Below, one piece after another: positions 22,248-24,955 of a DNA stretch of 27,019 nt. The notes under the pieces were generated by a model that was not told the origin of the DNA, searched no databases, and worked only from the letters and a program-made list of their open reading frames with translations. The position numbers were made by a program, and so were the translations under genes. This DNA is from a virus (lineage: Duplodnaviria; Caudoviricetes). Numbering within the stretch: the first letter of the stretch is position 1; each line of letters begins with the position of its first letter. The stretch lies in the IMG/VR virus record IMGVR_UViG_3300012667_000014, positions 1-27,019 of that record; one strand, written 5' to 3'.

Positions 22248-23531
22248 TTAGCCCATCCAGCTATTTGCGCCACCGTAATTTTGCACTGGTCGAGCCTGTC
22301 TTCGTTGTTTTGGTTCGTTAATCATCAAACCAATGTAGCGGAACGCGTCAGCGCCGTGGCTGTAATTGTCATGCACTGGCGTTTTGCTAAATTGCTTGGT
22401 GTCTGGGTCAACATCGTAACGGTAATGTCGCAAGCATTGCAATCCATCGTGGCAATTGTCACGGTCAAACCAGCAGTTTCTGAAGATTGTTCGGGCAGCG
22501 TTGATACTGTCCAAAATAGGCGTTCTTGGGATGATGCGGGTTTTGTAGCCAGCAGCCCTGACAATTTCTTCAATGCTGCGACCATTGCCTGCCAAAGTCT
22601 TGTTCTCAGCGTCATGCGGTAGCCACAGCGTGTCATAGATATATCCAAAGGTCTGCATCTTGGCTAAATAGTCGCTCATGGTCTGCTGATTGCCTTCCAT
22701 GTACCGAATCAAGCGGGTTTCCATACCCACAAACTGCAAGAACCAAATAGCCGTAGCGTCAGACCAACCCAAGTCAAAGATGGCGTGAACAGGCTTTGTG
22801 GGGTCATAGTTGACCTTGGTGATACGCCCATCCAACTCAGCCACTTGCATTTCACGGGCAAACACAGCGCCATCAACTGTCTGACGGCACAAACCTTCCC
22901 AGACAACGTTATAGGCTTGCGGGTCACGAGCTTTTAGCTGGTCCTTCTCAAGTCTGAGCGTTTCAGGAAACCAAGGGTTATCCGACCAGTTAATCTTGAC
23001 CACGATACAGTCATCAGGCGGGTGAAGCACAAACCGCTGATAAGTTTCGTCACTTTCCAACTCGGGGTTAAACGTAATCCAAATCTCTGAGCCAGGCTTG
23101 CGAATGGTTGGGATAAGCACGTTCCAGCTTAAACGGCTGGTTGTCTGCGCTTCTTCAACCCAACAAATGTCCACACCTTCGTAAGATTTGACGTTTGCCA
23201 CGTTGTTCTTGAGGCCAACAAAGCTGAATTCTGAGCCGTTTTTGCCACGGATGCTGGTTTGGGTGATTTCGTAGAACGAACCTAACCCTAGGGATTCAAT
23301 CTGGTCGCACAGCAGCTTGTGAACCGAATCTTTGATAGAAGTCTGAAACTCACGGGCGCAAAGGATGCGCAGCTGGTTCTTGGCGGCTTTAATCAGCAAC
23401 GCCCTAGCAACACCCCATGACTTAGCGCCACCGCGACCACCGTACAAAACTTTGTAGCGTGACTTCTCAAACAAGCATTGGAGCTTGATTGGAAACTCAG
23501 CATTAGCAATGGCGGTGTTGACTTCTGACAT
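22248..23531 (-). CDS. terL: Terminase large subunit (PBSX-type)
   Basis: Walker A YGGRGGAKS, Walker B WVEEAQ, TFNP, nuclease DLGWSD and SHGADAFRY. Confidence 0.95.
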   Translation of the reverse strand: MSEVNTAIANAEFPIKLQCLFEKSRYKVLYGGRGGAKSWGVARALLIKAAKNQLRILCAREFQTSIKDSVHKLLCDQIESLGLGSFYEITQTSIRGKNGSEFSFVGLKNNVANVKSYEGVDICWVEEAQTTSRLSWNVLIPTIRKPGSEIWITFNPELESDETYQRFVLHPPDDCIVVKINWSDNPWFPETLRLEKDQLKARDPQAYNVVWEGLCRQTVDGAVFAREMQVAELDGRITKVNYDPTKPVHAIFDLGWSDATAIWFLQFVGMETRLIRYMEGNQQTMSDYLAKMQTFGYIYDTLWLPHDAENKTLAGNGRSIEEIVRAAGYKTRIIPRTPILDSINAARTIFRNCWFDRDNCHDGLQCLRHYRYDVDPDTKQFSKTPVHDNYSHGADAFRYIGLMINEPKQRRQARPVQNYGGANSWMG

Positions 23532-23546: not shown

Positions 23547-23712
23547 TGTTGGTGTCGGAGTAGCCATCTCCGAGGTGGGATTATCCAAGTTTCCCAACCC
23601 TCTTGACAGGGTAATGGCGGCTAACCATTGAAACACCAACACGACTGAGGACTGCTATGCACTCATAGGGGCTTGCGCCTTGCTGAGTCTGGGTACGGCA
23701 ATCCTCATGCGT
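23547..23712 (-). ncRNA. Unassigned highly structured RNA: long GNRA-capped stem plus five-way junction with complementary loops
   Basis: Stems read by hand: UGAGGAUUGC/GCAGUCCUCA, ACUCA/UGAGU, GGC-GCAA-GCC, GUUGGUG/CACCAAC, AAUGG/CCAUU, ACCCU/AGGGU, UGGGA/UCCCA, UCGGAG/CUCCGA. G.U pairs favour the minus strand. Confidence 0.7.
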
Positions 23713-23714
23713 TT

Positions 23715-23790
23715 TGGCTCCTCAAGGTGGGGTCGAACCACCGACACACGGATTAACAGTCCGTTGCTCTGCCAACTGAGCTATTGAGGA
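23715..23790 (-). tRNA. tRNA-Asn (GTT) with encoded CCA
   Basis: TCCTCAA TA GCTC AGTTGGCA GAGC A ACGGA CTGTTAA TCCGT GTGTC GGTGG TTCGACC CCACC TTGAGGA G CCA: canonical 76-nt cloverleaf. Confidence 0.97.
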
Positions 23791-23791
23791 A

Positions 23792-24205
23792 TTATTCTTC
23801 TTGCGGTTTCACAAACGTCACGTTAATACCAGAAAGCAAAGGCGCTCCATCAGCACCCGTGATCTCAGTCTTCGTGCTTTCACGGTACTTCTTAGGGAAT
23901 CGTGCAGCCATAGAACGCGACCAAAGGCCAGTGTTCAACTTAGCTGCATCCTTGTGTTCCAGCATATAGGATTGTGCTTGGTCTTCCCACCATGCAAGCT
24001 CTAATTCCTTCGCCAATTCCAAGGCGTGCTGAAATTCCTCATGAGTATCACGCCATGAGAACAAAGTTCTAGTTCCAACACCAATTATTGCGCCTATTTG
24101 CTCAACAGATTTACCAATGCGCCCCAATGCAATGACTTCATCGCACATAGCGGGGTCATACAATGTTGGTCTACCTACGGGGCGTTTTTCGGTTGTTTCT
24201 GTCAT
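23792..24205 (-). CDS. terS: Terminase small subunit
   Basis: GRPTLYDP start, HTH (GKSVEQIGAIIGVGTRTLFSW), EITGADGAPL tail; upstream of terL. Confidence 0.8.
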   Translation of the reverse strand: MTETTEKRPVGRPTLYDPAMCDEVIALGRIGKSVEQIGAIIGVGTRTLFSWRDTHEEFQHALELAKELELAWWEDQAQSYMLEHKDAAKLNTGLWSRSMAARFPKKYRESTKTEITGADGAPLLSGINVTFVKPQEE

Positions 24206-24484: not shown

Positions 24485-24674
24485 TGGTTTCCCCAAAATA
24501 AGCCAACAGGTCAATGTCTTCGTTAAGGTTCTTAAAACGCTCCTCAAACGAATACAGAATGCCTTTATACAGGCTGACATAGTAGCGGTTGCCGTTCTTT
24601 TTGTAGAACTCCAACTGCTTCTTGGCTATGCCGTAAGCCAGCGCCAGCGTGTAAATGTTCTCTTTGACTATCAT
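24471..24674 (-). CDS. Hypothetical protein (67 aa)
   Basis: ATGA overlap with the GroES-like gene; Tyr/Lys-rich. Confidence 0.55.
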   Translation of the reverse strand: MIVKENIYTLALAYGIAKKQLEFYKKNGNRYYVSLYKGILYSFEERFKNLNEDIDLLAYFGETNAQA

Positions 24675-24955
24675 TCTTCAACAAAACAAATGTCTTGCCA
24701 GCTCATTTTCAAGCATTGGTCTTCACCTAGCTTCAATGGCTCAAACTTCAAATATTCGTCTTTGGCTGTGTTCGCTACCGTACCAAAGTGGACTTTATCG
24801 CCCATCTTTAGCCCCTGGCGCATAGCATCGTCACCCAAGGCGACAACGTGGCCTGTCGTTGGGTAGCCTTCTACCTTGCTCAAGTCCAGCACTTCAGACT
24901 TGAAACGTTGTTCAGGTTTGACAATGATTTTGTCTCGCAATGGCTTGATGTTCAT
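24671..24955 (-). CDS. groES: GroES/Cpn10-like co-chaperonin
   Basis: MNIKPLRDKIIVK...GHVVALG...LKMGDKVHF...MSWQDICFVE aligns by eye with E. coli GroES MNIRPLHDRVIVK...GEVLAVG...VKVGDIVIF...MSESDILAIVE. Confidence 0.82.
   Translation of the reverse strand: MNIKPLRDKIIVKPEQRFKSEVLDLSKVEGYPTTGHVVALGDDAMRQGLKMGDKVHFGTVANTAKDEYLKFEPLKLGEDQCLKMSWQDICFVEE

Follow-up and report, generated by a model that had tools for sequence, protein, structure and literature searches.

A predicted folded 94-nt RNA cassette between phage terminase genes with two complementary loop pairs and a tRNA-acceptor-like frame

Natural RNA-only cages (ROOL, GOLLD and manA) are newly discovered and their function is open. 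The manA RNA of cyanophages and Photobacterium is described as forming pentamers and a 60-mer through two intermolecular kissing interactions, L5-L7' and L8-L9', one of which joins consecutively numbered loops (bioRxiv 10.64898/2026.07.01.735769); its pseudoknot was originally drawn with a question mark (PMC2864571). The cages of ROOL and GOLLD are held together by kissing bridges that, according to the account of these RNAs, were first detected as covariation (PMC12286853). The phi29 pRNA self-associates through loop pairing and is presented as essential and as reported for phi29-like motors only (PMC5066667). Bacterial RNase P, as summarized in PMC4919922, prefers a U at position –1 of its substrates and processes several phage regulatory RNAs.

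Here we describe cassette B, a predicted 94-nt RNA encoded in a 27-kb IMG/VR virus record of 78% estimated completeness (hereinafter designated the window, meaning the whole stretch of DNA that was analysed). Like manA (RF01745), cassette B is a short structured phage RNA with two complementary hairpin-loop pairs (L5-L7' and L8-L9' in manA_A0F1, as described in the sources above), but it has no manA sequence or Rfam model match (gathering score or E ≤ 10), sits in a tRNA-acceptor-like frame within an exchangeable array of freshwater phages with likely Burkholderiales hosts, and its assembly is predicted here from sequence. ROOL and GOLLD, too, come from phages and prophages, have unknown functions, often lie near tRNAs and join their chains through kissing-loop bridges (PMC12286853); they span several hundred nucleotides, whereas the 94-nt cassette B has no Rfam match, and a tRNA lies within ~1 kb in only 6 of 72 cassette frame loci, so the notion that the cassettes usually stand beside tRNAs was rejected. 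Cassette B also shares small size, a multi-way junction and complementary loops with phi29 pRNA, but pRNA is described as essential and tied to the gp16 motor (PMC5066667), whereas cassette B is absent from complete close relatives and adjoins a two-subunit P22-like terminase.

A tRNA-like closing stem, a U before and a G at the predicted 5' end and a co-located tRNA are features in common with C4 of P1/P7. Further likenesses are P4 CI RNA and the T4 species 1 and 2 RNAs, which we take to be RNase P-processed phage small RNAs. Unlike tRNAs and RNase P-processed phage RNAs, cassette B has no D-/T-loop consensus, anticodon-like role, encoded CCA or found antisense target, and we know of no standard frame with hundreds of cargoes among such RNAs. 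No tRNA cloverleaf (D-loop GG, T-loop UUCR, anticodon arm) is present in cassette B, and the only tRNA that ARAGORN and Rfam detect is the adjacent tRNA-Asn. Cassette B may thus work like manA, ROOL and GOLLD while belonging to none of them; we regard it as a probable variant of the structured, self-assembling small RNAs of phages, in an array organisation of which we found no description. If this is true, it would be an RNA-only ring or cage with a subunit smaller than manA.

The insert between terS and terL and its cassette array

On the minus strand of the window, terS (24205-23792) is followed by terL (23531-22248), portal, scaffold and major capsid protein genes, and the PHROG families of TerS, TerL, portal, scaffold and capsid are other than phi29-type. 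The 260-base gap between terS and terL comprises a tRNA-Asn (23790-23715) and ~170 strongly folding bases; the 176-nt unit folds with a z score of –4.2 (0 of 200 shuffles as low), and the ~170-base folded part has no Rfam family match at gathering score or E ≤ 10. The features are listed below.

23792-24205, minus strand: terS, terminase small subunit, 137 aa (PHROG 309, E 3.5e-17)
23715-23790, minus strand: tRNA-Asn(GUU) with encoded CCA, first unit of the insert (Rfam RF00005, 66 bits; ARAGORN)
23707-23712, minus strand: 5' arm of the constant frame (fold; recurrence in 109/120 viral frame-motif matches)
23646-23706, minus strand: cassette A, 61-nt RNA with acceptor-like closing stem and GNRA-capped arm (6 homologues with paired changes, by eye)
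23547-23640, minus strand: cassette B, 94-nt five-way-junction RNA with acceptor-like closing stem and 3' A (fold z –3.3; near-identical copies in 4/4 runs)
23613-23629, minus strand: hairpin 1, loop 23624-23618, complement of loop 4 (sequence; loop test; variant G>A at 23618)
23597-23612, minus strand: hairpin 2, loop 23607-23602, complement of loop 3 (sequence; loop test)
23576-23596, minus strand: hairpin 3, 11-nt loop 23591-23581 (sequence; loop test; variant G>A at 23585)
23556-23572, minus strand: hairpin 4 at the T-arm position, 5 bp, 7-nt loop 23567-23561, abutting the closing stem (sequence; fold)
22248-23531, minus strand: terL, terminase large subunit, 427 aa (PHROG 3717 and 2)

In the predicted fold, positions 23712-23710 of the frame 5' arm pair with 23643-23641, next to a 2x2 internal loop. 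Cassette B ends 16 bases upstream of the terL start, and the purine-rich ribosome site of terL (~23540-23534) lies outside the RNA fold. Given their common strand and the lack of any terminator-like site found inside the insert, terS, tRNA-Asn, insert and terL are probably co-transcribed. Promoter-like sites in the window (6 versus 4.1 ± 1.9 expected) are not above chance; the best sigma-70-like site (10/12; 25522-25494, minus strand), upstream of small ORFs and terS, is a possible late promoter. One small ORF (24671-24955, minus strand) shows a weak co-chaperonin GroES match (PHROG 3188, E 7e-5), and a clearer GroES-like gene is located upstream of the array at another locus (L113).

Comparison of nine terS-terL gaps reveals a constant frame around unrelated sequences, one gap (L034) containing three units in tandem. 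We estimate 1,100 IMG/VR matches to the 17-base frame motif. Its upstream partner arm accompanies 109 of 120 fetched viral matches versus 2 of 120 in prokaryote genomes, both of which are Burkholderiales MAGs, suggesting Burkholderiales as the likely host group; in a search for the host, 19 of 401 family-level genomes match the frame pattern, with the upstream partner arm only in the starting genome. Each array unit consists of two slots, A and B, both with a 7-8 bp closing stem and both starting with a G preceded by U. The distinct modules extracted from all loci (220 A and 173 B) group into 214 BLAST families, including 137 singletons and 7 families found in both slots. In slot B, pair 7 is paired in 91% and pair 8 in 42%, and an A comes next in 160/171; a freely varying position of slot A is G-C in 140/218 and A-U in 64/218. 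Most other frame positions are fixed by the search patterns and their constancy is not independent evidence. Tetraloops, G.U pairs and tRNA bodies indicate an RNA read from the minus strand, and ARAGORN (relaxed threshold) makes 10 calls, one of them a run-through duplicate, of tRNA cloverleaves using the frame stem as acceptor among 393 module strings. Integron attC sites were considered and rejected, as their consensus is unmatched and the G.U pairs and tRNA bodies point to RNA.

Cassette B is thus one cassette of a widespread phage array that is unmatched in Rfam and presents ~214 exchangeable RNA families in tRNA-acceptor-like frames. Rfam gives no matches in 10 related loci and, in 20 further loci, only tRNAs and two sub-threshold matches; in the window, only the tRNA-Asn reaches gathering score, and three more sub-threshold matches at E ≤ 10 are irrelevant. 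A sub-threshold int-alpA-like RNA (L104:818-886, minus strand; 31.3 bits versus a gathering score of 35.8) lies just downstream of one array and before a replication gene, outside the modules. No account of this array was found in the literature searched, and single modules may be catalogued anonymously in the supplements of PMC5737381 and PMC10690425, the latter of which reports 10,006 candidates, 14 of them upstream of a large terminase.

Across 72 frame loci, a terminase gene is the nearest neighbour in 22 (10 before terL, 9 before terS and 3 after terL), with TerLs of several unrelated families, and the remaining loci adjoin primase, helicase, polymerase, MazG, a Dps-like gene (5), SSB, HNH, resolvases or unknown genes. 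The gene after the array in the five Dps-like loci (L098, L136, L137, L138 and L145), four of which have an HNH gene upstream, belongs to PHROG 858 ('starvation-inducible transcriptional regulator') and is presumably Dps-like.

Cassette A constitutes a separate RNA family, showing paired changes in its stems and an arm capped by GYAA (window 23646-23706, minus strand; L380, L381, L477, L111, L114 and L184), and neighbours different B cassettes in other phages, for example in L380. Units that are collapsed or halved, in which one slot is absent or has shrunk to a short hairpin, occur in L006, L011, L016, L027, L166, L441 and L466, suggesting deletion and exchange by recombination between constant frames.

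The presence of the insert was followed among the best 80 of 601 TerL relatives, confirmed at 75-95% identity. In the 60 that gave a terS match, terS and terL abut in 49 and are separated by a gap in 11, and public contigs that skip the whole insert exist. A 100% complete relative with a 92% identical TerL lacks both frame and module; its DNA is 81% identical to the window over terL-portal, 88% over scaffold-capsid and 88% over terS, with an alignment gap at the insert. In the records of 10 relatives that were searched, the cassette frame is present in 0/6 relatives at least 90% complete, the sole one-mismatch match having no partner arm, and the cassette B module in 0/5 near-complete relatives. 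Throughout the relatives and copies compared, the cargo changes and the terminase does not. Cassette B is optional and exchangeable. In one TerL relative, a tRNA-Asn (L074:434-509) lies ~2 kb upstream of terL and is not directly followed by a cassette frame.

Fold, loop complementarity and natural variants of cassette B

The minimum free energy fold of a 95-nt piece is a four-hairpin junction (–35.5 kcal/mol, z –3.3, 3/1000 dinucleotide shuffles as low) closed by an 8-bp stem (23640-23633/23555-23548). Stem 1 (23629-23625/23617-23613) presents loop 1 UUAGCCG (23624-23618), stem 2 (23612-23608/23601-23597) loop 2 GUCAAG, stem 3 (23596-23592/23580-23576) loop 3 AACUUGGAUAA and stem 4 (23572-23568/23560-23556) loop 4 AUGGCUA. 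The initial annotation had claimed a 6-bp complementarity between loops 1 and 4, a 5-bp complementarity between loops 2 and 3 and the lack of any linker between hairpins 2 and 3, all of which hold; a linker is equally absent between stems 1 and 2. Loops 1/4 form 6 contiguous pairs, 5 of them Watson-Crick, and loops 2/3 form 5, 4 of them Watson-Crick, with only 2-4 pairs available to the remaining four loop combinations. Under three nulls, 50-210 of 50,000 sets of random loops matched in length attain the 6+5 double match, a chance of 0.1-0.4% that applies per RNA, before counting the RNAs viewed in a genome scan. ViennaRNA pairs the first and last bases of loop 1 (U.G), in competition with the sixth kissing pair, and loop 4 is self-complementary over 6 pairs, two of them G.U. 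An alternative long helix between hairpins was rejected, since pairing, read from the sequence, ends at the loop edges.

Near-identical copies of cassette B are found in public assemblies from all four runs examined (5 contigs), of which three are aquatic and one is labelled soil; the X13 contig is identical to the window module and may be its source. Three runs registered as RNA match at small shares (0.06-0.10), and run X4 is flagged as probable DNA. Two of the four changed positions listed among the copies fall in loops. One, G>A at 23618 (minus strand), is carried by X1 and X4 at depths of 2.4 and 19.5, respectively; the other, G>A at 23585 (minus strand), by X1 and X6 at respective depths of 2.4 and 2.6. 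Each variant is present in two studies. Both replace the single G.U of a kiss with A-U, leading to 6 and 5 Watson-Crick pairs, and 2-6 of 50,000 random trials pair as well as the loops carrying both changes. Only 4 of the 31 possible loop transitions convert a kiss G.U into A-U, which places two improving changes out of two at p ~0.013, or 0.036 when only the 8 loop guanines are counted (arithmetic on transition counts). Both changes are one-sided, two of the contigs have a depth below 5, and the change at 23618 is ambiguous, as it equally repairs a U.G that could close stem 1 (U-A). Both loop changes sit together in the low-depth second X1 record, where stem 1 is weakened by two other changes and the alignment breaks off at hairpin 4.

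The initial annotation had looked to covariation of loops 1/4 and 2/3 in homologues. Complementarity is kept in the copies and two variants turn G.U into A-U, but the changes are one-sided, and two-sided covariation was not found among the near-identical copies, the searches having yielded no diverged homologue. Blastn of the module against GenBank phages returned no match; five IMG/VR module patterns gave 0, 4, 5, 12 and 9 matches, none with the frame or a four-hairpin fold; one metagenome scan gave two overlapping contigs whose match covers 24 nt of otherwise unrelated sequence; and nhmmer over the fetched loci recovered only the window itself. Upstream of the module, the contig ends carry four different sequences, so that cassette B moves independently of cassette A; in run X4, a terL-like start again follows the module. 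Cassette B is a strongly folding cassette with two non-random loop complementarities that are kept in its variants.

Geometry of the loop contacts and sister cassettes

The missing linker between hairpins 2 and 3 had been taken by the initial annotation to favour pairing between molecules. A rigid idealised A-form model reverses this reading, with the 2/3 contact fitting in cis and the 1/4 contact strained. Loops 2/3 match the dimensions of an H-type pseudoknot, with a 5-bp stem, a 1-nt loop, a 5-bp second helix and 7 nt crossing 14-16 Å, so that the zero linker would be no obstacle in cis; the geometry resembles that of the T2 gene 32 pseudoknot. In the same model, loops 1/4 pair 6 of each 7 bases and stack stem 1, kiss and stem 4 into 16 bp, spanning 48 Å when straight, 42-44 Å at a 60° bend and 34-38 Å at 90°, versus a reach of 39 Å with the closing stem intact and 53 Å with its top pair opened. 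A cis kiss between loops 1 and 4 would thus be strained, and is allowed by the model upon a 90° bend or one opened closing pair.

Sister cassettes provide a second view of loop pairing. K2 (L106:948-985, plus strand; L134, L140, L188 and L398) has a 6-bp kiss between neighbouring hairpins that is 100% paired in 5/5 sequences, with 2 of the 6 pairs changed on both sides and 0/500 shuffles as high, the sequences having been picked by a pattern that allows matched loops without requiring them. The K2 kiss spans at least 24 Å versus a 21 Å linker even at a 90° bend, which precludes cis closure in the rigid model and makes K2 perhaps the cleanest self-assembly candidate. In M1, a 3-bp pairing of the first and last loops is A-U in 12/17 and G-C in 5/17, a switch that may be a single event. 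Together, the K2 and M1 sequences show selection on loop-loop pairing in the cassette family. The broader proposal that kissing loops are universal in the family was rejected, as p ≤ 0.05 is reached in 8/86 multi-loop families. Among 31 modules with four or more hairpins, a double kiss occurs in two, cassette B and the unrelated slot B module of L193, in which first and last loops pair around an inner 6-bp pair to form a nested double kiss.

Loop-loop pairing in cassette B is backed by the chance test, by the two wobble-to-Watson-Crick variants and by covarying kissing loops in sister cassettes; the self-assembly that the initial annotation had drawn from it is plausible, and finds a closer precedent in manA RNA than in pRNA.

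Proposed mechanism and alternative readings

We propose that cassette B RNA would be cut from the late transcript, likely by host RNase P, at the U/G boundary before the 7-8 bp acceptor-like stem. The acceptor-like stem stacked on a 5-bp/7-nt hairpin, the U at –1 and the G at +1 are tRNA-like, and the frame also holds tRNA bodies in relatives; the 3' RCCA is absent from cassette B, in which A and then AC come after the stem. Since both slots start with a U before a G and RNase P prefers U(–1), release by this enzyme is a reasonable inference despite the missing RCCA, and we consider it probable. Loops 2/3 of the released RNA would form an intramolecular H-type pseudoknot, with loops 1/4 joining neighbouring molecules head to tail into small rings, or both kisses would form in trans and give cages; in light of the geometry, we lean slightly towards at least one kiss being between molecules. 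For the structural mechanism as a whole, its job excluded (an RNase P-released, tRNA-framed small RNA that oligomerises through two loop kisses), we estimate a probability of about 0.48. The job itself might be accessory and host-directed, the RNA serving as a stable multivalent decoy or ligand for a host RNA-binding or defence protein and its cassettes being swapped between phages as other accessory genes are, a tentative suggestion drawn from the turnover pattern of the cargo only. Equally tentative is the larger picture, in which freshwater phages would maintain a standardised plug-in library of >200 small RNAs in tRNA-acceptor frames, with cassette B building an RNA-only ring or cage via its two kissing interfaces and acting on or against the host.

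A compact processed monomer could account for much of the same evidence. Both kisses would then form in cis, loops 1/4 in the manner of a tRNA elbow and loops 2/3 as a pseudoknot, to give a nuclease-resistant, tRNA-shaped decoy. The frame, which also accommodates tRNA bodies, places hairpins 1 and 4 where a tRNA has its D-arm and T-arm, and tRNA D- and T-loops meet in cis. The model likewise permits loops 2/3 to close in cis (14-16 Å for 7 nt), as well as loops 1/4 if the top closing pair frays, and the variants and loop test are equally compatible with cis and trans. With the closing stem intact, however, a 6-bp kiss with single-base linkers requires a bend of more than 60°, and the ROOL and GOLLD loop contacts first read from covariation are described as having turned out intermolecular (PMC12286853). 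We judge the monomer a possible but not the favoured form. Alternatively, the element might act in cis on the late mRNA, affecting terL translation, mRNA stability or read-through, with the kisses merely stabilising a leader. Its 16-base distance from the terL start, the 10 of 72 frame loci directly before terL and the terL-like start downstream of the module in run X4 are in line with such a leader; the ribosome site lying beyond the fold, the ~214 unrelated module families that share the frame before many gene types and the abutting terS and terL in 49/60 relatives make it improbable.

A packaging or capsid role, suggested by the initial annotation from the position between terS and terL, finds no support. 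A pRNA-like ring on portal, procapsid or terminase that aids packaging would suit this position, the 22/72 loci with a terminase gene as nearest neighbour and the loop-mediated self-association of pRNA, but exactly the insert is missing from the 100% complete relative with a 92% identical TerL, the frame occurs in none of the six relatives at least 90% complete, the cargo turns over while the terminase stays, and pRNA, as described in PMC5066667, is essential and confined to phi29-like motors. Complete close relatives without the cassette indicate that it is not a required packaging part, and the cassette family stands beside many gene types and unrelated terminases. We therefore consider a packaging RNA very unlikely and not to be pursued; our preferred reading of this position, at the head of the late operon, is an insertion site that is well transcribed. 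Coincidental loop complementarity in a neutral or decaying cassette is a reading for which the many RNAs examined in a genome scan, the mere two loop variants known and the collapsed units in relatives could be cited; a chance of 0.1-0.4% and the improved pairing in both variants (~0.01-0.04, arithmetic on counts) render it quite unlikely. Least credible is an antisense function of the C4/CI immunity type, in which the loops would act as seeds for pairing with another RNA and be masked by their mutual pairing: the C4 precursor is an RNase P substrate according to a title cited in PMC4919922, but on the coding strand of the window loops 3 and 4 lack any perfect target and loops 1 and 2 match only scattered 6-7-mers, there is no Rfam C4 match, and the variants improve self-pairing.

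As a self-assembly candidate, cassette B offers 94 nt with defined interfaces, natural variants and testable cis/trans predictions, and the ~214 families in a common tRNA-like frame form a panel for structure screens and for the effects of phage accessory RNAs on hosts. Ten loci of this panel (L412, L414, L449, L390, L440, L127, L198, L138, L382 and L383) contain slot-B tRNA bodies that encode no CCA and whose anticodon or D arms are odd or swollen; these are candidate tRNA decoys.
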